Of a stretch of 64,000 bases of DNA, positions 18,635 through 28,707 are shown in pieces. How positions within the stretch are numbered: the stretch's first letter is position 1; each line of letters opens with the position of its first letter. The notes beneath the pieces were generated by a model. It was given only the letters and a program-made list of their open reading frames with translations, was not told the origin of the DNA and did no database searches. Source of the DNA: Ostreococcus lucimarinus (taxonomy: Eukaryota); NCBI GenBank assembly GCA_000092065.1, contig CP000583.1. The stretch is one strand, 5' to 3'. A program made the position numbers and the translations under genes.

Positions 18635-21600
18635 ATGTCGCGCGCAAAGTTCGCGTTTCGCCGGCGACACAGCCGCTTCGTCCTCGATGAGCTGTACTCG
18701 GACGACGACGGTAGCGATGACGAGTTTTCGCAATTCCCAGACGGATTGCCACCGCCGCAGGCGCACGCGGCGGCGCACGCGGGCGTGGATCACGTGCGGA
18801 TATCGTTTTTGGAAGCGCGGGCGTTCGGCGATCGCGCCAAGGGAGCGATGGCGGAGGGAGCGTATCTAGGGATGAGGAACGCGATATTGGAGCGATGGGC
18901 GATCGACGGCGCGTGCGGGACGGCGCTCGAGGAAAAAGACGTCGCGCGGGCGCTCGGGGCGCGCGAGGCGGACGACGTGGCGTATGCGGTGGATTTGTTT
19001 CGGTGGTTGGAGGAGAACGGGGGGATAAACTATGGGATCTTCAAGGAGGCGGCGAAACGCGAGAGCGACGCCGAGACGAAGGCGGACGCGGACGCGAAGG
19101 ATGGGGACGCGCCGACAGAGGCGCGGGTGACGAAAGCGTTGATTGCGGTGCTTAGATCGGCGGATTTAACGGTGGATACCGAGAAGGCGATTCGTCACAA
19201 GCTCGAGGCGCGCATGGGTGTTGGATTGAAGGAGTTTAAACCAGTCATTCGCGAGACGATTGAAAAGTTTTTGGCCAATCCGAGCGAGTTCGCGGACGTC
19301 GAGGACGACGCCGATGACGCCGGAGAGACGATTACGATGGCTGAGATTCCATCGCGACCGGCCCTTGTGGATGCGCGACCGACGATCGTGATCGGGGCCG
19401 GACCCGCCGGTCTCGCAGCGGCGACGATGCTTCGGCGACAAGGTTGCGAAGTCGTCGTTCTTGAAGCGCGTGATCGCGTCGGAGGGCGTGTGTACACGGA
19501 TTCAGAAACCTTCAGCGCTCCCGTAGATCTGGGTGCGTCAATCGTCACTGGCGTGAGTGAAGATCCTAAGCAACGCACTGGGATGCCATGGCTCGGCGTT
19601 CGCGCTGATCCCAGCGGCGTCGTCGCCAAACAGCTGGGCTTGAATCTCGTCGAACTTCGTGAAGGCTGTCCGCTGTACGACACCAAGACTGGTGAACAAG
19701 TTTCAAAGGAAATGGACGAGAAAGTAGAGCGCATCCGTGACTTGGTCATGGATGAAGCTCGCGCCAAGGTGGATGCGGGCGGGGAAAGCCAAATGATAGG
19801 CGCTTCGCTTGGCGAGGCTTTGAAGGAGGCGACGGAGAATTACTTTTTGAAGCTCGTACAAGACGACGGCAACGACAGTGATGATAGTGAGACACACGCC
19901 GCTGTACGGACCGAGCAGGCGGCTCGAATGGGTCAGACCGAACGCCGCCTGCTCGATTGGCACTGGGCTAATCTTGAGTACGGTTGCAGCGCATCGTTGA
20001 ATGATATTTCGTTACCACACTGGAACCAAGACGAGACGTTCGGGGGGTTCGGCGGTGCACACTGCATGGTTAGTGGTGGCTATGGAACGATCATGTCTCG
20101 ACTGGCGGAGGGTCTTGATGTTCGTCTCGGTATGCCTGTTGCCGAAGTGCGTCACGATGCAAACGGCGTTGTCGTTGAAACGAAAGATGGGCAGCAGATT
20201 GAAGGTGCTTCCGTCGTCGTCACCGTCCCGCTTGGTTGTCTCAAGGCTGGTGACGTGAAGTTCAGCCCACCGCTCGGAGATATGAAGTCGAGCGCGGTTG
20301 AGCGTCTCGGCTACGGAAACTTGAACAAAGTTATCCTTGAATTTGACGAGGCGTTTTGGGATCAATCGGTTGATTATTTTGGCTCCGCCATCGATAGTGC
20401 AGAGAATCGCGGGCGAAGTTTTATGTTTTGGAACTTAGTGCCAGTAAGTGGCAAGCCCATGCTGATCTCTCTCATCGCCGGCGACGCCGCGAAATCGGCT
20501 GAAACCGAAGGTTCGGAGTCCATAGTGAAATCTGTTCTTGCGACGCTGGCGAGAATCTGTTTCCCGGAAGATCCGTCGAAGATGCCTCCTTTGAAGCAAT
20601 CTCTCGTTACTCGATGGCAGTCCGATCCCTATGCGCGAGGATCGTACTCCTACGTTGCCACTGGCTCGAAGGGAGCTTCTGATTACGACGATTTGGGTAA
20701 GCCCGAAGGACGCGTGCTCTTCGCGGGTGAACACACCTGTAAGGAACATCCAGACACTGTTGGCGGTGCGATGCTCACCGGTTGGCGTGCGGCGCGTCAA
20801 GCGCTGGCGATCGCTCGCGGAAAAGAGGTGCACGATGAAGTGTTCAATTTGGATGAAATGCGCGCGGCGATCGCGAAGCGTAACGTCGATGTGGAGTACG
20901 CATTGGATGAAGAGGAGAACGCGCTCGACCACGTCATCGATCCGAGCGAGTTGTATCGTCGACGTGCGCAAGAAGATTACCTCGCCGATGCGGGTAAAGA
21001 GGAGGCAAAAATCATTTACCGCATTATGTCTGCGGTAGAAACTGGCGAAAAAGTTGACGTTCCAATCGAATTCGCCACTGTCATGTTGAAATTGAGAACC
21101 GTTCCGGGCCGAAGAGCGATGATCAACGCTTTGGTTGATGACGTAAGCGCAAGCGATCGCCGAGACTGGGCGCTGAAGCACGAGGGTTTGGCCCTTCTCA
21201 ACGAATGGATGCTTGATTCGAAGAATCATGCGAAGACATCGGAGACTTTAGTGCTGATGAGGCGCATGTTGGAGCTGTTGTTGGTGATTCCGTCAGATCT
21301 CGCCGCGCTTCGTGCGAGCGGCATCCCGAGGACGCTCAAGAATCGCTTCCAAACGCACCAAGACGGACGCGTCCGTCAACTCGCACGTCAATGCGGCCAC
21401 AAGTGGATGCAGGCACTTAGCCGTAAATCTGCTGGTTTGCCGCCGATTGATGACGTGGAGGAGGAGACGAAGAAGAAGGTAGTGCCGGTGCGAAAGAAGC
21501 CATCGCACCTCGGCGCAGCAGTGTTACTTGGGAACGCCACTGTCGAGCAAATGGACGTCGCCAACGACGATGCAGAAGAGACCATCGAAGTCAAACACGT

Positions 21601-22234
21601 CATCGATCCGGTGAAAACCGCTGAGGAAATTCAAGCGAAACGTGATGCCATGATAAGCGCTGCGCACGATTTACCGGAGGGCCAAGCCGCGCTCGCGGCG
21701 CGACAAGCGGCTGAACGCGCGGCGGAACAAGTCAAGGAAGCCATGCGTTTAGCCGAAGAAGCTCAGCGCGCCGCTCGCGAAGCTGAAATCGCGGCGACGG
21801 CTGGTGTCCGCATGTCTAAGAAGAATGTCATCGCATCGTTTGACTCATTCAACGACGCAGCGAGCGCAAAGCGTGAACGCGCCAAGAACAAGAAGCGCAA
21901 GGCTGCGGATGGCGACGATGACGACGATGACGACGATGACGATGAGACACCAGAAATTTCACTTGACGACTATCTCGCTAGAATCAGAAAGCAAGTGCGT
22001 CATTACGTGCACGAGCAGCTTCAAGACAAGCGCGAACGAGGAATCGTCACCAAAGCCGAGTGCAAAAAACTCGAAGAAAAAGTCGTAGAGAAAATTTTGG
22101 ACAATTCCGGTGGCGTCAACGACACCTCCAAGGCGTTCATGACGAGCAAGCGCAAGGAAAAAATCAAAAATCTCATCGGAGCGTACTGCCAATCCACCGT
22201 GAACGCCCGAAAGAAGAGTAAACATTCGCAATAA
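18635..22234 (+). CDS. LSD1/KDM1-like lysine-specific histone demethylase: SWIRM, then DEK_C-like, then FAD amine oxidase, then a TFIIS-N-like domain, then acidic/coiled-coil tail
   Basis: SWIRM 'RISFLEARAFGDRAKGAMAEGAYLGMRNAILERW'. DEK_C-like 'VTKALIAVLRSADLTVDTEKAIRHKLEARMGVGLKEFKPVIRETIEKFL'. FAD motif 'IVIGAGPAGLAAATMLRRQGCEVVVLEARDRVGGRV'. TFIIS-N-like 'LLNEWMLDS...SGIPRTLKNRFQTHQDGRVRQLARQCGHKWMQ'. ATG at 18635. Confidence 0.85.
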   Translation: MSRAKFAFRRRHSRFVLDELYSDDDGSDDEFSQFPDGLPPPQAHAAAHAGVDHVRISFLEARAFGDRAKGAMAEGAYLGMRNAILERWAIDGACGTALEEKDVARALGAREADDVAYAVDLFRWLEENGGINYGIFKEAAKRESDAETKADADAKDGDAPTEARVTKALIAVLRSADLTVDTEKAIRHKLEARMGVGLKEFKPVIRETIEKFLANPSEFADVEDDADDAGETITMAEIPSRPALVDARPTIVIGAGPAGLAAATMLRRQGCEVVVLEARDRVGGRVYTDSETFSAPVDLGASIVTGVSEDPKQRTGMPWLGVRADPSGVVAKQLGLNLVELREGCPLYDTKTGEQVSKEMDEKVERIRDLVMDEARAKVDAGGESQMIGASLGEALKEATENYFLKLVQDDGNDSDDSETHAAVRTEQAARMGQTERRLLDWHWANLEYGCSASLNDISLPHWNQDETFGGFGGAHCMVSGGYGTIMSRLAEGLDVRLGMPVAEVRHDANGVVVETKDGQQIEGASVVVTVPLGCLKAGDVKFSPPLGDMKSSAVERLGYGNLNKVILEFDEAFWDQSVDYFGSAIDSAENRGRSFMFWNLVPVSGKPMLISLIAGDAAKSAETEGSESIVKSVLATLARICFPEDPSKMPPLKQSLVTRWQSDPYARGSYSYVATGSKGASDYDDLGKPEGRVLFAGEHTCKEHPDTVGGAMLTGWRAARQALAIARGKEVHDEVFNLDEMRAAIAKRNVDVEYALDEEENALDHVIDPSELYRRRAQEDYLADAGKEEAKIIYRIMSAVETGEKVDVPIEFATVMLKLRTVPGRRAMINALVDDVSASDRRDWALKHEGLALLNEWMLDSKNHAKTSETLVLMRRMLELLLVIPSDLAALRASGIPRTLKNRFQTHQDGRVRQLARQCGHKWMQALSRKSAGLPPIDDVEEETKKKVVPVRKKPSHLGAAVLLGNATVEQMDVANDDAEETIEVKHVIDPVKTAEEIQAKRDAMISAAHDLPEGQAALAARQAAERAAEQVKEAMRLAEEAQRAAREAEIAATAGVRMSKKNVIASFDSFNDAASAKRERAKNKKRKAADGDDDDDDDDDDETPEISLDDYLARIRKQVRHYVHEQLQDKRERGIVTKAECKKLEEKVVEKILDNSGGVNDTSKAFMTSKRKEKIKNLIGAYCQSTVNARKKSKHSQ

Positions 22235-22310
22235 CACTCACTCACGTTTTAGTACTGCCGAGCACCCACCCATCCTTCGTTGGCCGCGCCACACGACACC
22301 TCGCGGCGTC

Positions 22311-23801
22311 ATGTTCTCGGGCGCGGTGAAGATCGCGCCCGACGCTCTGAACGACTTCATCGCCCCCTCGCAGGACTGCGTCGTCGCTCTCGACGGTGGT
22401 AAGCTCAAACTCGACGACGATGGTGCCGTCGGCGCGTCTTCCGAAGACGCCTTCTCCACCGGCGAAGTCGCCCTGCGTCGACGTAAACCGCGCGAAGACG
22501 ACGCCATGGCCGTGGATGCCGAGCCAACGTCGACTTTCACACCGACGATGACGCAGGGCGACGCGCTGAAGGTGTCGCTGAGCGATTGCTTGGCGTGCAG
22601 CGGTTGCGTGACGAGCGCGGAGAGCGTGCTGCTGGAACAACAATCCGTGGATGAGTTCGCACAGGCGTGCGCGCGCGCGCGGAGCGACGGAACGAGCGTC
22701 GTCGTCGCGAGCGTCAGCCCGCAGTCGTTGATGAGCCTGAGCGAGGCGTATGGATTGGGAGTGGAGGAGACGCGCGCGCGGCTTGGCGGGCTGTTGAAGG
22801 CGGGATTCGGCGCGGCGAGGGCGTTTGATACGTCATTTAGTCGGGATATAGCGCTCGTGGAGACGTTTGCAGAGTTTACGGAGTGGATGCGAGACGGCGC
22901 GAGGACGCCGATGTTGGCGAGTGCGTGTCCGGGGTGGGTGTGTTACGCGGAGAAGACGCACGGCGAACTCGCGGTGCCGCACATGGCAACGACGAAGAGT
23001 CCGCAGCAAATCATGGGAAGGTTTGTGAAGAGCGCGGTCGCGCGCGAACTTGGCGTACCAGCACATAACGTGTACCACGTGAGCGTGATGCCGTGCTACG
23101 ACAAAAAGCTCGAGGCGACTCGCGATGATTTCGAGAGCGACGGTGTCAAGGATGTCGACGTCGTGCTCACGACGGGCGAGGTGGCTTTGTTATTAGAAAA
23201 GGCTGGTTTGTGCCATTTGAGAGACGCGCCGGCAAATGATTTTGACGCATTCGTGAGCACAAACGAACAAGCACCAGAAAGTGTGTGCGCAGCGCCGGCG
23301 GTATCGGGATCTGGGGGATACGCCGAGTACGTTTTCCGGCGCGCGGCGGCGGAGTTGTTCAATGCTCCGATAACTGGAGAGATTGACTGGGTCAAGATGC
23401 GCAACGCGGACATGCGTGAGGCCACACTAACGATCAATGGTGAAGCTGTTCTACGCGTGGCTGTCGCGTATGGTTTCAGAAACATTCAAAATCTTGTTCG
23501 AAGCATCAAATTAAAAAAGAGCAAGCACCATTTCGTCGAGATAATGGCGTGTCCTTCGGGATGCTTGAATGGCGGCGGTCAAATCCCAGCGCGCGAGGGA
23601 ACTGCGAACAAAGAATTGATCGACAGACTGGATGATACGTATAGGGAAAACGCACGCGCACGACCGATGGCGGATGTGTCGACGCTCTATCGCGAATGGA
23701 TCGGCGGAAATCCAGGATCGTCAAACGCTCGCGAAGCGCTTCGAACGCAATATCACATTCGCGCAAAATCCGTCGGAGTCGTCCAACTGAACAGTTGGTA
23801 G
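22311..23801 (+). CDS. NARFL: Cytosolic Fe-S cluster assembly factor Nar1/NARFL ([FeFe]-hydrogenase-like)
   Basis: 'SLSDCLACSGCVTSAESVLL', 'VMPCYDKKLEA' and 'IMACPSGCLNGGGQI' are hydrogenase-like cysteine motifs. ATG at 22311, 76 bp after the LSD1-like stop. Confidence 0.85.
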   Translation: MFSGAVKIAPDALNDFIAPSQDCVVALDGGKLKLDDDGAVGASSEDAFSTGEVALRRRKPREDDAMAVDAEPTSTFTPTMTQGDALKVSLSDCLACSGCVTSAESVLLEQQSVDEFAQACARARSDGTSVVVASVSPQSLMSLSEAYGLGVEETRARLGGLLKAGFGAARAFDTSFSRDIALVETFAEFTEWMRDGARTPMLASACPGWVCYAEKTHGELAVPHMATTKSPQQIMGRFVKSAVARELGVPAHNVYHVSVMPCYDKKLEATRDDFESDGVKDVDVVLTTGEVALLLEKAGLCHLRDAPANDFDAFVSTNEQAPESVCAAPAVSGSGGYAEYVFRRAAAELFNAPITGEIDWVKMRNADMREATLTINGEAVLRVAVAYGFRNIQNLVRSIKLKKSKHHFVEIMACPSGCLNGGGQIPAREGTANKELIDRLDDTYRENARARPMADVSTLYREWIGGNPGSSNAREALRTQYHIRAKSVGVVQLNSW

Positions 23802-23856
23802 CTGCTAGCTAGATCTAGGTATAGAGTTACAAACAGCGTTGTAATTGAGTAATAGG

Positions 23857-25497
23857 TTAAAAGACGCTTCTTGGCCGCGGTCCGACGTCAAGCTTGATTT
23901 CATCCGGGCGCAGGGTAATCAAAGCTTTTGGCTTTGGCGCGCTCGATCCCGGGGGAAGACGTAGTTCGCACGCGTTGCAAATAAGTGCGAGTAAAAGAAC
24001 ACTCTCCATCATAGCGAACCCAGTGCCGATGCACACGCGAGGGCCGCCTCCAAACGGGAAGTATGCGTCATTTGGTCCGAGATTTTTCAACGCATCGCGC
24101 GCCAACGTTCCTTCCGAATACGGACTTTTCACCAACCATCGTTCGGGTTTGAACGCTTTGGGGTCGTTCCAATACTGCGAATCTCTTTGAATCAGATACG
24201 GAGCGATCAGAACAGTGGTTCCTTTCGTAATGAACACATCAGATCGAAGCTCCACATCTCTCGCGGCGCATCGACCCACCATGTAAGCTGGCGGGCGAAT
24301 GCGAAGCGTCTCAAGGATACACGCTTCGGTGTACGGAAGTTTCGAGAAATCACTCGCATCGAGCGACGAGCCAGCATTTTCCTTGGTTTTCAAGTGTTGT
24401 CGGACCTCGGTGGCTATCTTATCGCCCACATATGGCCTTTCAGCGATGAGCGCGCACGCCCATGACAACAAAATTGCGCTTGTCTCTTGTCCCGCAACCA
24501 TGAGTGTCATGAGCTCATCGCGAAGGGCTTTGTCCGACATCCCCGTTGCGTCGTTGCCGTCACCCTCGTTCTCATCCTTTTCAAGCAACAAACGATCGAG
24601 CAAGTCCAATTCATTATTTTGTTCTCCACTCGCCATGGCTCGACGACGTTTGGCAATGATACTGTACACCTCCTCATCGAGTCTTTTGACCGCATCGTTG
24701 TACCGCACGTTATCAAAAGTCGGCGCCCACTCGGGAATAATCATTCCCGTCGCCGCTCGCCGACCAAAAAATTCAAAGCTATCCTTAATCGCACCATTAA
24801 TCTTACTCGCTCTCGCACCGACGACGTCTGCCCCGAACAACGCACTCGCCACAATTTCCAACGTTGCATCGTTAAAATCCGCGTACACGTCCCGCCTTCC
24901 CCGCCTCGACCACGTCTTATTCACTAACCTCTCACCTACCTCAATCATGCACCGCGCGTACGTCTCGACCGCCGCCTTGCGAAACGCCGGATTACTCAAC
25001 CGTCGCTGTCGAGCCCACGTCTCGCCGTCGCTCACCAATAACCCATTCCCCGCCAACGACGATCCAGGAAAGAACGCCGTGCCATCTTTTTGAAAACATT
25101 CGCTCTGATCCACCAAAACCGCTCTCGCCAGCGCCGGCGAGCTGACGAGGACGACGTTTTCTCCCGCGAGCGTCAGCCCGACTGCGTCGCCGTGCGCCTC
25201 TCTCGCGCGTTCCAAAAACTTTAACGGATCGTACACCAACTCCAGCGCCACGTCCTCGCGCGGTCCTCGCGGAAATCGCGCTGGCTTTACGTTCGCGTTT
25301 CCCGCGACGTCGCGCGCGACGCCACCGAGCGCGCGAAGCGTCGCGACGGCGACCGCGTCCAGCGTCCCTCGAAGCGCATCGTCTTCCCCAGCCTTCGTCG
25401 CCCCCGACCGTCGCGCGCGCCCGGACGCGCGCGCGCGACGCCCCGAGCATCGCCCCGCGCGCGCCACGCGCGCGCCGCCGCGCGTCGCCGTCGACAT
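23857..25497 (-). CDS. Cytochrome P450 with N-terminal targeting sequence
   Basis: Heme loop 'FPFGGGPRVCIGTGFAMME', ExxR 'ETLRIRPP' and 'PERW'. ATG at 25495-25497. Family (for example CYP97-like) not resolvable by eye. Confidence 0.8.
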   Translation of the reverse strand: MSTATRGGARVARAGRCSGRRARASGRARRSGATKAGEDDALRGTLDAVAVATLRALGGVARDVAGNANVKPARFPRGPREDVALELVYDPLKFLERAREAHGDAVGLTLAGENVVLVSSPALARAVLVDQSECFQKDGTAFFPGSSLAGNGLLVSDGETWARQRRLSNPAFRKAAVETYARCMIEVGERLVNKTWSRRGRRDVYADFNDATLEIVASALFGADVVGARASKINGAIKDSFEFFGRRAATGMIIPEWAPTFDNVRYNDAVKRLDEEVYSIIAKRRRAMASGEQNNELDLLDRLLLEKDENEGDGNDATGMSDKALRDELMTLMVAGQETSAILLSWACALIAERPYVGDKIATEVRQHLKTKENAGSSLDASDFSKLPYTEACILETLRIRPPAYMVGRCAARDVELRSDVFITKGTTVLIAPYLIQRDSQYWNDPKAFKPERWLVKSPYSEGTLARDALKNLGPNDAYFPFGGGPRVCIGTGFAMMESVLLLALICNACELRLPPGSSAPKPKALITLRPDEIKLDVGPRPRSVF

Positions 25498-25512
25498 CGC
25501 GCGCGCCGTCGC

Positions 25513-25566
25513 GCAGTGTCGAGCGCCACTCGTCGACGTGCAGTGTCGAGCGCCACTCGTCGACGA
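25513..25566. repeat. 27-bp perfect-but-one tandem duplication (gcagtgtcgagcgccactcgtcgacgt x2) in the P450 / MT-like divergent promoter
   Basis: Read directly. Confidence 0.6.
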
Positions 25567-25636
25567 TCGCCGCGCGCGCTTCGATCGACCTCCGCGTCGC
25601 CGGCGACCGGGCGACGAACGGCGCGCGCGTCACCAC

Positions 25637-25852
25637 ATGGGCGTCCTCGCGAACCTGTTCGGCGGCTCGAAGTCGTCGAAAACGACGCCCAAGGCGCCGC
25701 AAACGCCGCACGCGAGTTGCGCGCAATCGAGCGGTGGCGGCGCGCGCGGCGCGTGCGGAAGCGCGGGGAGCGCGTGCCCGTGGAGGGATTGCCGGTGCGG
25801 AGCGAATTGTAAGTGCGGAGCGAATTGTAAGTGCGGGAGCGTGCGACGGTAG
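25637..25852 (+). CDS. Candidate 71-aa Cys-rich metallothionein-like protein
   Basis: ATG at 25637 and TAG at 25850-25852. C-terminus 'CPWRDCRCGANCKCGANCKCGS' has CxC/CKC motifs. High GC3 like neighbouring genes. The last two 'CGANCK' units come from an 18-bp tandem DNA repeat. Could alternatively be a uORF or 5' exon of the DHHC gene. Confidence 0.3.
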   Translation: MGVLANLFGGSKSSKTTPKAPQTPHASCAQSSGGGARGACGSAGSACPWRDCRCGANCKCGANCKCGSVRR

Positions 25853-25944
25853 ACGGGCGAGCGCGCGATCGGGATCGCGGGTGGATAACGCGGCGCGAAC
25901 GGGACGGGCGAGAGGGGACGCGCGGCGAGGATTGGACGAACGTG

Positions 25945-26865
25945 ATGGCGGAAAACGTCGGAATGAACCGAAGAGTACGCGCGCGGACGTGCGCGCGACG
26001 GTGCGTGGGGAAACTGAACCTGCCGGTGGTGCTGGTGCTCGGGATGTACTCTTACGTGTACGAGACGACGAAGACGTACGCGTTTCACGAAGGACGCGCG
26101 GGAGGGCTGGCGGAGCTCGTCTTCGCGCTCACCGCGGGGCTGGGGATGGTTATGTATGCGTGCACGGTGTTGAGAGATCCGGGGAGGGTTCCGGGGGATT
26201 ACGTGCCCAAGGTTGAGGAGGGAGACGCGCTTGTGGAGGCGAAACGGAAAGGCGGGGGATTTCGATTTTGTCAAAAGTGCGAACGGCACAAACCGCCGCG
26301 GACGCATCACTGTCGCGTGTGTAAGCGGTGCGTGTTGCGCATGGATCATCACTGTGTTTGGGTGAATAACTGCGTGGGGCACTATAATTACAAGAGTTTC
26401 TTCTTGTTTTTGTTTTACGCCACGATTTCGCTGTGCCAAGCGGCGTACCATCTCGGAAATTTTGCGGCGAGTGAAATCTTCAACCCGCGCGGGTCCAAGT
26501 TTGACGACTACAAAGCTTCCTCGCTCGTCATCGGATGTTTGGTGGTAACGTGCACGCTCACGATCGCCCTCGCCGCACTCTTCGTGTGGCACGTGCGACT
26601 CGTGGTGAACAACAAGACGACCATCGAGCACTACGAAGGCGTGCGTTCGAGATACAACAACATCCCCACCGTCGTCGAGCATCCATACTCGCTCGGTTTG
26701 CTCGCCAACTTGCGAGAGATACTAGGTAGAAATGTTTTGTTCTGGTTCACCCCGGGTTGCAAAATTAGCGGCGACGGCACGCGGTATCCGAATGTTTTGG
26801 AAATGTCGCGAGAGCGATGGGACCGAACCGTTCGCACCAAGGAGCGCGAGCTCACGGTGCTCTAA
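25945..26865 (+). CDS. DHHC-type protein S-acyltransferase (palmitoyltransferase)
   Basis: 'CQKCERHKPPRTHHCRVCKRCVLRMDHHCVWVNNCVGHYNYKSF' DHHC-CRD flanked by 4 TM helices. First ATG at 25945. Confidence 0.8.
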   Translation: MAENVGMNRRVRARTCARRCVGKLNLPVVLVLGMYSYVYETTKTYAFHEGRAGGLAELVFALTAGLGMVMYACTVLRDPGRVPGDYVPKVEEGDALVEAKRKGGGFRFCQKCERHKPPRTHHCRVCKRCVLRMDHHCVWVNNCVGHYNYKSFFLFLFYATISLCQAAYHLGNFAASEIFNPRGSKFDDYKASSLVIGCLVVTCTLTIALAALFVWHVRLVVNNKTTIEHYEGVRSRYNNIPTVVEHPYSLGLLANLREILGRNVLFWFTPGCKISGDGTRYPNVLEMSRERWDRTVRTKERELTVL

Positions 26866-27002
26866 TCTTTTCGCCCCGCCGCGGCGTTGAATTAATAATG
26901 ACACACACAAGCTATATTCATCACGCTTCATCGCGACGATGACACGCGTCGGAGTCTCGCGTCGAACGTTCCGTCGTCCGCGGCGTCACTTCGCGCCTCG
27001 CC

Positions 27003-28001
27003 ATGGTGATTGCCCAGCGCAGCCTCCGCGTCGTCCTCGCGTGCGCGCTCGCGCTTCTCGCGCTCGCCTGCACCGCGCGCGCGCACGCACCGGTGCTGCC
27101 GAACCTCCCGAACCTCCCTCCGAACCTGCACGCCGCGCTGTCGACCGTGGACGTGTCGAAATGTCCCGAGCACAAGAGCGGACATCGTCGCGCCAACACC
27201 GCCGGGAACGCGCACCTGAAGCGCGGCGCGCACGACACCGCGCTCGCGTGCTACGTCGCCGCGCTGTCGTCCAAGATGAATTTCCCGCCCGCGCTGTACG
27301 GAGTGGGAGAGACGTTCGCGAGGCGCGCGCCGGGCGGATTTGAGCTCGCGCGAGAGAGTTTCGAGCTCGCGCTTCGACACTGGCCAGAATACGCGGACGC
27401 GGCGATCGCGCTTGGTGATCTGTGGAGCGCGGTTCGGGGAGATCGAGCGCGAGCGGAGACGTATTACGCGCGCGCGACAAAGGCGAAACCGGGAGATGCG
27501 CTGTCGTGGGAAGCGTTGGCGTCGAATCAATACGAGGATGGACGATTGGACGACGCGTTGGCGTCGTACAACGAGGCGTTGAATGCGGTTCGACAAGCGC
27601 CTGGATTGTATTTTAGTCGAGGAAAGGTGCATCGCGCGAAGAAGGATTACGGCGCGTGCGTCGAGGACGCGCAACAGGCGCTGAAGCTAGCGGAGAACTT
27701 TGGACAGGCGTATCATTTATTGGCAACGTGCGAGGAAAAGTTGCTCGGCGCCGCGGCACTTGAAGTGGATGCGCACTACCGCGCGGCGATCGAACACGAA
27801 CCCGAATTCGCGGACCACTTTTTGGACTTTGTGCATTTCATTTATCGCAACGACGAATCGCGCCTGAAGGAGGCGCGAGAAATCTTGAGCAAAGCGCACG
27901 CGTCGATGGAGGACAACGGCGAACGCGCCAAGCTCGAGCGAGGCACGCGAGAGTTTGAAGAATTTGCGTCGCGCAGGGCGCACGATAACAGCGAGCTTTA
28001 A
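27003..28001 (+). CDS. Secreted or organelle-lumen TPR-repeat protein (signal peptide 'MVIAQRSLRVVLACALALLALACTARA')
   Basis: ATG at 27003, cleavable signal-like N-terminus, then tetratricopeptide-like helices (AHLKRGAHDTALACYVAAL; ALASYNEALNAV...). Confidence 0.6.
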   Translation: MVIAQRSLRVVLACALALLALACTARAHAPVLPNLPNLPPNLHAALSTVDVSKCPEHKSGHRRANTAGNAHLKRGAHDTALACYVAALSSKMNFPPALYGVGETFARRAPGGFELARESFELALRHWPEYADAAIALGDLWSAVRGDRARAETYYARATKAKPGDALSWEALASNQYEDGRLDDALASYNEALNAVRQAPGLYFSRGKVHRAKKDYGACVEDAQQALKLAENFGQAYHLLATCEEKLLGAAALEVDAHYRAAIEHEPEFADHFLDFVHFIYRNDESRLKEAREILSKAHASMEDNGERAKLERGTREFEEFASRRAHDNSEL

Positions 28002-28035
28002 TTCACAATTACATGCACAGCGTAATAATACGTTT

Positions 28036-28707
28036 TCATCCTAATCTGTCCGCCATCGCTCCCCAGGTATCGTTGAGGCGACTGTACGGTTTTCTGTCGT
28101 CGCGGCGCGGACCTCCTCCACGACTCGGTCCTCCTCGCCCTCTATCGCCTCCTCGCCCTCTATCGCCTCCTCGCGATGGACCCGGCGGGCCGGGTGGAAC
28201 GATGTGCGCCCACTTGCAGCTATTACCGCGTCGGCATCGACCGACGCTAAAGTCGTAGCACCGTTGCTGGCCGCCGTTCCCGCCGTTCGCCGATACTCGA
28301 TGGCCGTTCAAGACGTCGCGCATGGCGTCTCTAGCCCGCCCACGCGCGCCCTTATCGTGACTGAAAATGAGCACTAGTTCTTTCTCTGGCTCATCATCCG
28401 GATCGGGTATGTTGAAGCAAAACGTTCCAGTGTTTTGTTCGATGAGCCGGAGCGTGGCGCCGCCTGTGCCGTAGATACGGCTGATGCCGCCGAAGCCAGA
28501 TTTACACGGGAAAACGGTGACATCGTTGCGATCTTTAAACGAAATATCCGTTCCTAACGTCCCTTTCTGTTGCTTCAACAACCATCGAATGTAGTCCCAA
28601 CATCTCGCGCGTTCGTCGCGATCGCCAGTCATGATGCCGAGCATGCCGACGTACTCAAACGAGCACCCGGACGCCTTCGCGATTTTCCTTCGCGTCGATC
28701 CCTGCAT
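28036..28707 (-). CDS. RNA-binding protein with KH-like segment(s), CCCH zinc finger and RGG box
   Basis: 'CYDFSVGRCRRGNSCKWAH' CCCH zinc finger and 'GGDRGRGGDRGRGGPSRGG' RGG box. ATG at 28705-28707, but an upstream exon cannot be excluded. Stop is 34 bp from the TPR-gene stop. Confidence 0.5.
   Translation of the reverse strand: MQGSTRRKIAKASGCSFEYVGMLGIMTGDRDERARCWDYIRWLLKQQKGTLGTDISFKDRNDVTVFPCKSGFGGISRIYGTGGATLRLIEQNTGTFCFNIPDPDDEPEKELVLIFSHDKGARGRARDAMRDVLNGHRVSANGGNGGQQRCYDFSVGRCRRGNSCKWAHIVPPGPPGPSRGGDRGRGGDRGRGGPSRGGGPRRDDRKPYSRLNDTWGAMADRLG

Follow-up and report, generated by a model that had tools for sequence, protein, structure and literature searches.

A conserved reading frame between the P450 and DHHC genes

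In the green picoalga Ostreococcus lucimarinus CCE9901, a short open reading frame (ORF) lies between a divergently transcribed cytochrome P450 (P450) gene and a gene encoding a DHHC S-acyltransferase (DHHC), within a 64,000-nucleotide stretch of contig CP000583.1 (assembly GCA_000092065.1) that is referred to here as the window. An original prediction, made from the DNA letters, had proposed this frame (here termed ORF1) as a metallothionein (MT)-like micro-gene, and had named as alternatives a 5' exon or an upstream ORF (uORF) of the DHHC gene. The 71-codon frame, which extends on the plus strand from the ATG at 25637 to the TAG at 25850-25852, was confirmed, as were both flanking genes; ORF1 has GC contents of 0.53, 0.74, and 0.81 at first, second, and third codon positions, in agreement with the predicted high third-position GC content, and its Cys-rich product is MGVLANLFGGSKSSKTTPKAPQTPHASCAQSSGGGARGACGSAGSACPWRDCRCGANCKCGANCKCGSVRR. 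The DHHC ORF corresponds to a 306-aa MMETSP ORF and includes XP_001416708.1. The features of the locus, in window coordinates, are as follows.

23857-25497, minus strand: P450 gene, divergently transcribed and a kept syntenic neighbour; product identical to XP_001416993.1
25498-25636: shared divergent promoter or 5' leader between P450 (minus) and ORF1 (plus), 139 bp; no plus-strand ATG
25513-25565, plus strand: 27-bp tandem duplication inside the 139-bp region between the P450 ATG and the ORF1 ATG (repeat finding and metagenome comparison)
25637-25852, plus strand: ORF1 coding sequence, 71-aa Cys-rich protein, stop included (translation, syntenic orthologs with kept stop, substitution rates)
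25637-25666, plus strand: N-terminal hydrophobic/Gly motif MGVLANLFGG, family pattern M(G)[FLV][FL]G.[LF][FW]GG (nine-sequence alignment)
25775-25849, plus strand: C-terminal 7-Cys domain CPWRDCRCGANCKCGANCKCGSVRR, spacing C-x4-C-x-C-x3-C-x-C-x3-C-x-C, plus basic tail (invariant alignment columns, hhalign)
25795-25841, plus strand: in-frame 18-bp tandem repeat, unit C-G-A-N-C-K; two perfect copies at 25795-25830, third copy partial
25809-25832, plus strand: two GTAAGT donor look-alikes (25809-25814 and 25827-25832) that derive from TGT-AAG-TGC codons; not splice sites
25853-25944, plus strand: inter-ORF spacer, 92 nt, ATG-free; the next ATG is the DHHC start
25945-26865, plus strand: DHHC S-acyltransferase coding sequence, 306 aa, putative downstream cistron (PF01529, 134 bits)
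25831-26865, plus strand (4633-5667 in contigs L001-L003): DHHC as called with a GTG start by prokaryote-style gene calling

The length of ORF1 is by itself uninformative, as the window contains 155 ATG-initiated ORFs of at least 71 aa. The Cys pattern CxC-x(2-4)-CxC-x(2-4)-CxC occurs once in the six-frame translation of the window and in 0 of 100 dinucleotide shuffles.

Ortholog loci were collected via DHHC homologs and supplemented by 77 further loci (37 distinct C-termini) obtained by scanning metagenome contigs for the pattern. Every locus retrieved via DHHC had kept the pair of P450 (minus) and DHHC (plus) genes with a homologous Cys-rich frame in between, and the loci from the pattern scan span the Ostreococcus clades, two Bathycoccus-like clades (GC 0.47-0.52), Micromonas-like genomes (GC 0.54-0.72), and one lineage with a GC content of 0.43. 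Altogether, more than 30 lineages of Mamiellophyceae, of Ostreococcus-, Bathycoccus-, or Micromonas-like type, carry ORF1 at this position between the two genes, with the Ostreococcus orthologs including the O. tauri type and at least six other lineages. The position of the ORF1 stop codon is constant across lineages. In an alignment of nine sequences, the 15 invariant columns consist of G10 of the N-terminal motif and CPWxDCxCGxxCxCGAxCxCG, and the Cys spacing listed above, which is invariant in this alignment, is also kept in the 37 distinct C-termini apart from small changes in the first spacing. Codons of the Cys domain show synonymous change nearly everywhere (TGC/TGT, GGA/GGG/GGT/GGC, AGC/TCG) with the encoded residues kept. 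Nei-Gojobori ratios of non-synonymous (dN) to synonymous (dS) substitution rates lay in the range 0.01-0.3, and between Ostreococcus clades dS had come close to saturation or passed it; one comparison between these clades, for example, showed synonymous differences of 11.5/16.5 versus non-synonymous differences of 1.5-2.5/58.

In Micromonas-like loci, the Cys domain forms exon 2, without an in-frame ATG, and follows a 157-185-nt phase-1 GT..AG intron. Exon 1 of these loci encodes MFGNLFGGSG(N/S)KSG..., and the spliced product is a 49-aa protein (MFGNLFGGSG...GKCPWSDCSCG.GCKCGAACKCG.KRR, followed by the stop). A frame that is preserved despite interruption by an intron, and that evolves under purifying selection, establishes a protein-coding gene; on this comparative evidence, ORF1 is a genuine, single-exon, unannotated protein-coding gene of O. 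lucimarinus. The ORF1 family comprises proteins of 49-82 aa in the Mamiellophyceae-type loci examined and in some other green picoalgae, with tandem modules in cryptophyte proteins.

Looking up the exact 71-aa product returned no recorded gene, and a single-sequence search against 5.8 billion proteins found no match to the ORF1 protein. Gene callers applied to same-species metagenome contigs start DHHC at an upstream GTG at 25831 (344 aa), over the 3' end of ORF1, and in locus L006, a 95-aa wrong-frame gene was called over the ORF1 locus; other sources place the DHHC start at the second Met (NCBI model, 300 aa) or at MAENVG (MMETSP, 306 aa). The micro-gene is missing from the reference annotations as well as from protein databases, likely for two reasons: a length below the usual ORF cut-offs and the stretching of DHHC over its 3' end by metagenome callers.

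Both tandem repeats that had been described in the original prediction were recovered by Tandem Repeats Finder. The 18-bp unit GTGCGGAGCGAATTGTAA, from which the terminal units of the protein derive, is present at 25795-25841 in 2.6 copies with 96% matches, and the 27-bp unit in the promoter region is present at 25513-25565 in 2.0 copies with 100% matches. Each repeat is confined to its one site in the window, and 0 of 100 shuffles contained two matches. Orthologs carry an equal number of GxxCxC units (three), with differing sequences (PG/AN, K/R; CGPGCKCGANCRCG); the 18-bp repeat therefore arose when two ancient units were homogenised in this lineage (PG to AN, R to K), and not by expansion. 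CCE9901-type metagenome contigs carry the 27-bp duplication (with few single-nucleotide polymorphisms), the sister lineage L026 has a degenerate version, and other Ostreococcus clades lack it; the duplication is young and specific to CCE9901-type populations, with no sign of conservation or function. A role as a conserved regulatory element was tested for this repeat and rejected, as it is not kept beyond CCE9901-type populations and occurs at a single site in the window. Population variation also affects codon 50 (25784), which is AGG (Arg, CPWRDC) in CCE9901 as compared to AAG (Lys, CPWKDC) in all same-species ocean metagenome contigs; Lys is the state in most other Ostreococcus clades.

With regard to the surroundings of the locus, a synteny block that covers window positions 18635-28707 and loci L001-L006 and L011-L014 includes genes for an amine-oxidase/DEK_C protein, a Nar1-like Fe-hydrogenase-domain protein, P450, the micro-gene, DHHC, and TPR, CCCH zinc-finger, and KH proteins. 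The core formed by P450, the micro-gene, and DHHC is common to Ostreococcus through Micromonas-like genomes, and the outer genes vary; in the amine-oxidase/DEK_C protein, SWIRM was found in the L004 and L005 orthologs only. On the minus strand, a 350-aa ATG-initiated ORF at 25630-26682 lies antisense to DHHC and ORF1; this Arg-rich (13%) frame is almost certainly an artefact of GC content and no gene. An Rfam scan of 25000-26400 yielded no match.

Protein architecture and relationship to metallothioneins

The ORF1 protein has three parts, including an N-terminal hydrophobic/Gly motif, a low-complexity Ser/Thr/Ala/Lys linker, and a 25-residue C-terminal 7-Cys domain. The N-terminal motif varies among homologs (MGFFGFG, MFGNLFGG, MWGRLFG, and MSFLGNLWGG) and resembles the N-terminal amphipathic helix of ARF-type GTPases. 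At the DNA level, AACCTGTTCGGCGG is identical in O. lucimarinus, L011, and L014, the last two being among three Micromonas-like loci. The Ostreococcus linker contributes two extra Cys and a conserved His, which brings the total to nine Cys. These residues, His25, Cys28, and Cys40 (25709-25720 and 25754-25759), include an H-x-S-C motif, and a second motif, xHAC, is found in several Ostreococcus clades; Micromonas- and Bathycoccus-like proteins lack extra Cys and His upstream of the 7-Cys core. It is possible that the extra Cys and His of Ostreococcus are additional ligands. The only aromatic residues, F8 and W49, account for 2.8% of the 71 aa, and the protein falls within the size (<=300 aa) and aromatic content (<10%) expected of MTs. 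A tryptic peptide of the protein is APQTPHASCAQSSGGGAR.

A family profile built from nine orthologs was used to search for more distant relatives. This search retrieved unnamed small proteins from picoalgal metagenomes and three-module proteins from cryptophyte transcriptomes (Hemiselmis), followed by grass type-1 MTs with PF01439, which constitute the first named match (E = 0.013). Alignment to the N-domain of a grass type-1 MT (P0251) by hhalign gave 94.5% over 19 columns, with 58% identity and the Cys in identical register. A HMMER scan without a word index, covering 1.84 billion representatives, identified six proteins including P0259, a 318-aa metagenome protein that carries an N-terminal HMA domain (MCTKSC...; PF00403, 34 bits versus a cut-off of 24.8) followed by two modules of the type CP[HF][SN]DCPC...CxCGxxCxCG; hhalign of the 7-Cys domain to P0259 gave 95.7%. 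This HMA fusion provides the best tool-derived evidence for a putative role of the module in metal handling, and P0259 would represent a Rosetta-stone-type link between the two. In the proteins P0244, P0249, P0255, and P0256 (115-194 aa), CxKWADCxC modules alternate with CPWSDCxC modules, separated by linkers of ~25 aa; two of these proteins are from cryptophyte transcriptomes (115-118 aa; one from Hemiselmis tepida), and the four possibly represent an undescribed algal MT family.

A number of observations weigh against an MT assignment. MTs are operationally defined as small, Cys-rich proteins with few aromatics that form metal-thiolate clusters, are often induced by metal, and contain 15-35% Cys (PMC7216689); the Cys content of the whole ORF1 protein (9/71; 12.7%) is under this range, which often serves to define MTs, with 14.3% (7/49) in the Micromonas-type protein and 28% (7/25) in the C-terminal domain. 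A Pfam scan found no MT model at gathering score, with PF02067 (7.9 bits) as the sole match of the window protein. In addition, Cys/Gly-rich repeats inflate profile scores, and the alignments with type-1 MTs and with the HMA fusion protein could reflect convergence. All relevant sub-threshold Pfam matches were to MT families (PF02067, PF05522, and PF01439). For PF01439 (cut-off 23 bits), the window protein had no match, Micromonas-type exon 2 scored 8.8-11 bits, and P0259 scored 19.7 bits; the ORF1 protein thus fails formal membership in PF01439. A sequence search of the PDB returned only a spurious match to photosystem I PsaL (E = 1.4).

Comparisons with individual known MTs place the ORF1 protein close to, and yet apart from, these proteins. 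The N-domain of plant type-1 MTs (MT family 15, PF01439, Metallothio_2) shares with ORF1 the CxCGxxCxCGxxCxCG register and the CKCG signature; by contrast, plant type-1 MTs have two Cys domains and a ~40-aa linker, whereas the ORF1 protein has one C-terminal domain (plus two isolated Cys in Ostreococcus) and is further set apart by an extra upstream Cys in CPWxD, the N-terminal hydrophobic motif, and the basic tail. A working analogy is provided by the fungal family-8 Cu-MT of Neurospora crassa (25 aa, 7 Cys), which is likewise a single small 7-Cys domain with mostly CxC pairs, enough for one Cu(I)-thiolate cluster; this protein shows no detectable sequence relationship to the ORF1 protein, however, and has another order of Cys spacings and no flanking regions. 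A further lead, rather than a test, comes from the MT of Fucus vesiculosus (Morris et al. 1999), for the 7-Cys N-domain of which a provisional sequence, CKIWEDCKCGAACSCGDSCTCGTVKK, was used; this provisional sequence aligns with the L010 ortholog (CPWRDCSCGSACACGAGCRCGTVKK), and hhalign of the family profile against it gave 96.7% over 27 columns, with the seven Cys, W-x-D, and the GTVKK end. The Fucus MT is a 67-aa protein in which 16 Cys form CxC motifs and the linker spans 14 aa (PMC6981760). Unlike the ORF1 protein, it has a second, 9-Cys domain, no N-terminal FGG-type motif, and a first spacing of C-x5-C instead of C-x4-C. All recovered Mamiellophyceae-type orthologs end after the 7-Cys domain, i.e., none has a Fucus-type second 9-Cys domain; cryptophyte database proteins combine CxxWxDC and CPWxDC modules in one chain.

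Given the Cys register shared with the type-1 MT N-domain as well as the HMA fusion, we infer that metal-thiolate binding is the best reading, and that the ORF1 protein probably binds metal. The protein would be best described as a single-domain 7-Cys (9-Cys in Ostreococcus) MT-like protein with an extra N-terminal motif. The MT-like micro-gene that had initially been proposed is hence borne out with respect to conserved coding, purifying selection, the type-1 MT N-domain register, and the HMA fusion, and falls short with respect to the Pfam MT cut-off and the Cys content of 12.7%. Apo-metallothioneins are disordered in the absence of metal; in the proposed mechanism, the seven thiolates (nine in Ostreococcus, perhaps joined by His) would enclose a small metal-thiolate cluster of Cu(I) or of Zn(II)/Cd(II), and the protein would contribute to metal buffering, storage, or hand-over. 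Such MT-like activity is predicted as the most likely activity of the ORF1 protein, with any metal specificity to be regarded as putative.

A scan of viral contigs identified a single match, a 321-aa protein encoded at 2356-3321 of L097 (a 300-kb IMG/VR viral contig), which carries a CHCGPNCKCGANCKCPPGCKCG patch without CPWxDC; this Cys patch is probably unrelated to the ORF1 family.

Arrangement of ORF1 and DHHC as a candidate bicistron

In 26 of 26 complete DHHC-linked variants, the first ATG past the ORF1 stop is the start codon of DHHC and lies 10-141 nt away (92 nt at this locus). No ATG occurs in any frame between the ORF1 and DHHC starts in 24 of 35 distinct single-exon variants, including 20 of the 26 complete DHHC-linked ones, and the three reconstructed spliced Micromonas-like mRNAs are also ATG-free between the two starts. 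By expectation, 1.5-4.9 ATGs should be found there per variant (at this locus, 0 were observed versus 2.8 expected); under a null model in which the protein was kept, synonymous codons were resampled from local usage, and the spacer was shuffled, the probability of finding no ATG was 0.004-0.055 per lineage. Start contexts differ between the two ORFs as well, since ORF1 has a pyrimidine (C or T) at -3 in 14 of 14 Ostreococcus variants, whereas DHHC has G there in all 14 (at this locus, with G at +4), against a window background of ~69% of long ORFs with a purine at -3.

A Bathycoccus-like clade (L072, L080, and L084-86; MGFFGF[TA]KKK...CGKTLK), in which an ORF1-DHHC spacing of 71-103 nt is kept, carries 3-7 out-of-frame ATGs in ORF1, which corresponds to chance level. 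These ATGs include GGA-TGC and AAA-TGC in the Cys domain, codon pairs that are not used by the other single-exon lineages. As the protein tolerates ATGs in this clade, their absence elsewhere therefore reflects selection, and the clade represents a natural loss-of-constraint control for the AUG desert.

Features described for green-algal bicistronic mRNAs include a short first ORF, a short inter-ORF distance, AUG depletion before the second ORF, and a weaker Kozak context of the first ORF, along with leaky scanning (PMC11892635; PMC7896298). The locus described here resembles these bicistrons (Gallaher et al. 2021, PMC7896298; PNAS 2025, PMC11892635) in its 216-nt ORF1, its AUG-free 92-nt inter-ORF region, the weaker ORF1 Kozak context, and its kept colinearity. 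It appears in neither of the two papers, however, in which Mamiellophyceae cases were inferred by orthology to Chlamydomonas loci; as compared to the published bicistrons, it is a candidate identified from sequence alone. In the arrangement that we propose, one mRNA would encode both proteins, with ORF1 as its upstream cistron and the DHHC S-acyltransferase as its downstream one, and ribosomes that skip the weak ORF1 AUG would scan 305 AUG-free nt to the strong DHHC AUG. We give a shared ORF1-DHHC mRNA with leaky scanning about an even chance, and favour with moderate confidence the explanation as a whole, i.e., that ORF1 would be a real MT-like micro-gene and a probable upstream cistron of the DHHC mRNA.

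Several findings speak against a shared mRNA. The Bathycoccus-like clade with ATGs in ORF1 shows no AUG depletion at the same spacing, and separate or overlapping transcripts are clearly possible in compact genomes; this clade shows that DHHC can be expressed without scanning from ORF1. ATG-free 305-nt stretches are found in 7.5-10.6% of the windows of this genome, and the AUG-desert signal is therefore a comparative rather than a single-genome one. Finally, the weaker Kozak context of ORF1 does not extend to Micromonas-like loci, where its start codon is preceded by a purine at -3 and followed by T at +4.

In three GC-rich chlorophyte-like picoalgal lineages (L016/17, L018/19, and L041), a homolog of ORF1 lies 19-140 nt upstream of another conserved ORF, with no intervening ATG. 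The partner is as follows.

L016 6001-7386; L018 209-1746; L041 from 183: partner ORF of ~400 aa, M..RRLLRAAAAHD.TP.LK.LLPLTA.GVE..., no Pfam match

This pair would represent a second candidate bicistron with another partner. Because the family tends to hold the upstream-cistron position, but without DHHC in these lineages, the pair provides evidence against an obligatory biochemical partnership of ORF1 and DHHC. A more far-reaching proposal, in which one Mamiellophyceae-wide bicistronic mRNA with a product ratio set by leaky scanning reflects a functional pairing (either through Zn supply or buffering for the DHHC zinc finger or through ORF1 as an S-acylated partner), is considered unlikely.

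Alternative explanations and significance

Two explanations that would deny ORF1 the status of a gene of its own are refuted by the data from orthologs. The original prediction had pointed to two 'tgtaag gtgcgg' sites as possible donors that would make ORF1 a 5' coding exon of DHHC. Indeed, GTAAGT occurs at 25809 and 25827, and splicing to an AG at 25851-52, 25860-61, or 25911-12 would bring the transcript back into the DHHC frame. However, GTAAGT exists only with a TGT Cys codon and is absent from many orthologs; L007, L008, L011, L013, and L014 have TGC-AAG-TGC at the first GTAAGT site and TGC-CGx or TGC-AAG, with no GT, at the second. Furthermore, the ORF1 stop and the residues past the putative donors (CGSVRR) are kept in all lineages, the implied introns would be 26-104 nt, and MMETSP DHHC ORFs are 'complete' from their own Met, which opens MAENVG in the 306-aa ORF and has its counterpart in the ORFs of other species. 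The exon was rejected on the basis of the ortholog codons without GT, the kept stop, and these complete DHHC ORFs, and we regard it as hardly credible. The same dismissal applies to a chance ORF in GC-rich DNA with a Cys pattern that arose by luck from the 18-bp repeat; while the 155 ATG-ORFs of at least 71 aa in the window and the lack of a protein database entry would fit such an ORF, frame, stop, and Cys pattern are kept in more than 30 lineages with saturated synonymous sites, the intron-split version preserves the frame, and the motif was found in 0 of 100 shuffles, which leaves chance next to impossible.

The other explanations accept the conserved peptide and differ in how it is expressed or what it does. 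The MT-like protein could be translated from its own short monocistronic mRNA, with the DHHC transcription start site inside or just upstream of ORF1 and hence overlapping units, and the AUG desert would then exist because ORF1 doubles as the DHHC 5' untranslated region. We consider this a possible, albeit less probable, arrangement. It would fit the very compact genomes of Mamiellophyceae, the 3-7 ATGs within ORF1 of the Bathycoccus-like clade, where DHHC is reached without scanning from the ORF1 AUG, and the occurrence of ATG-free 305-nt stretches in 7.5-10.6% of genome windows; it does not sit well with a spacer of just 10 nt in L010, with a desert that starts exactly at the ORF1 AUG and never part-way, or with the -3 pyrimidine of ORF1 in 14 of 14 Ostreococcus variants, for which an independent mRNA offers no rationale. 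Another explanation, which takes up the uORF of the original prediction, is that the nascent Cys-rich peptide acts in cis (e.g., by stalling the terminating ribosome in a metal- or thiol-dependent manner) and thereby sets the translation of DHHC, with no role as a free protein. The position upstream of DHHC, the AUG-free spacer, a peak of conservation in the last 25 codons before the stop that is typical of stalling uORF peptides, and the homolog of other green picoalgae, likewise 19-140 nt upstream of another ORF, are consistent with this explanation. The module is, however, also found two to four times in free-standing proteins of 115-194 aa and in the HMA fusion, and therefore works as a protein domain, such that a cis-regulatory role is rated low; in addition, the N-terminal motif is kept, although a tunnel-stalling peptide would not need it, and the downstream gene is a different one in non-Mamiellophyceae lineages. 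Of the uORF proposal, the upstream-cistron behaviour, the AUG-free path to DHHC, and the weak ORF1 Kozak context thus stand, and a purely regulatory function is improbable. A lipid-anchored peptide, with Cys that are S-acylated rather than metal-bound, that serves as a substrate or partner of the DHHC enzyme and is myristoylated at its N-terminal Gly in Ostreococcus, seems quite improbable. In the Ostreococcus-, Bathycoccus-, and Micromonas-like loci examined, ORF1 and DHHC have stayed linked, the Ostreococcus and Bathycoccus-like proteins start with MG, GVLANL of O. lucimarinus fits the PROSITE myristoylation pattern, and the basic C-terminal tail adjoins the Cys cluster; by contrast, the neighbour outside Mamiellophyceae is not DHHC, MGF variants violate the myristoylation pattern, and the strict CxCGxxCxCG register and the HMA fusion indicate metal chemistry. 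N-myristoylation was rejected as a feature of the family, as Gly2 is missing where homologs (Micromonas-like and others) start with MF, MW, or MS.

What is new here is an algal/plant-type MT domain that forms the sole domain of its protein, a new architecture, that is likely encoded by an upstream cistron, and that has escaped annotation in major model picoalgae. The genera Ostreococcus, Micromonas, and Bathycoccus are globally abundant picophytoplankton that serve as models, with an ecology shaped by the supply of Cu, Zn, Cd, and Fe; in the literature searched, the only mention of an MT for these genera was one unspecified GenBank entry (PMC7216689). ORF1 is a specific candidate for a metal-buffering protein of these algae, and the signature CPWxDCxCGxxCxCGxxCxCG can be used to track the family in ocean meta-omics. 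If the bicistron is true, it would be the first candidate, within the papers searched, to come from Mamiellophyceae sequence itself instead of from orthology to Chlamydomonas, and would present the unusual case of a metal-binding peptide paired with a zinc-finger acyltransferase, with a loss-of-constraint clade available for comparison. A functional pairing of ORF1 and DHHC, if true, would tie protein palmitoylation to the metal or thiol status of the cell.

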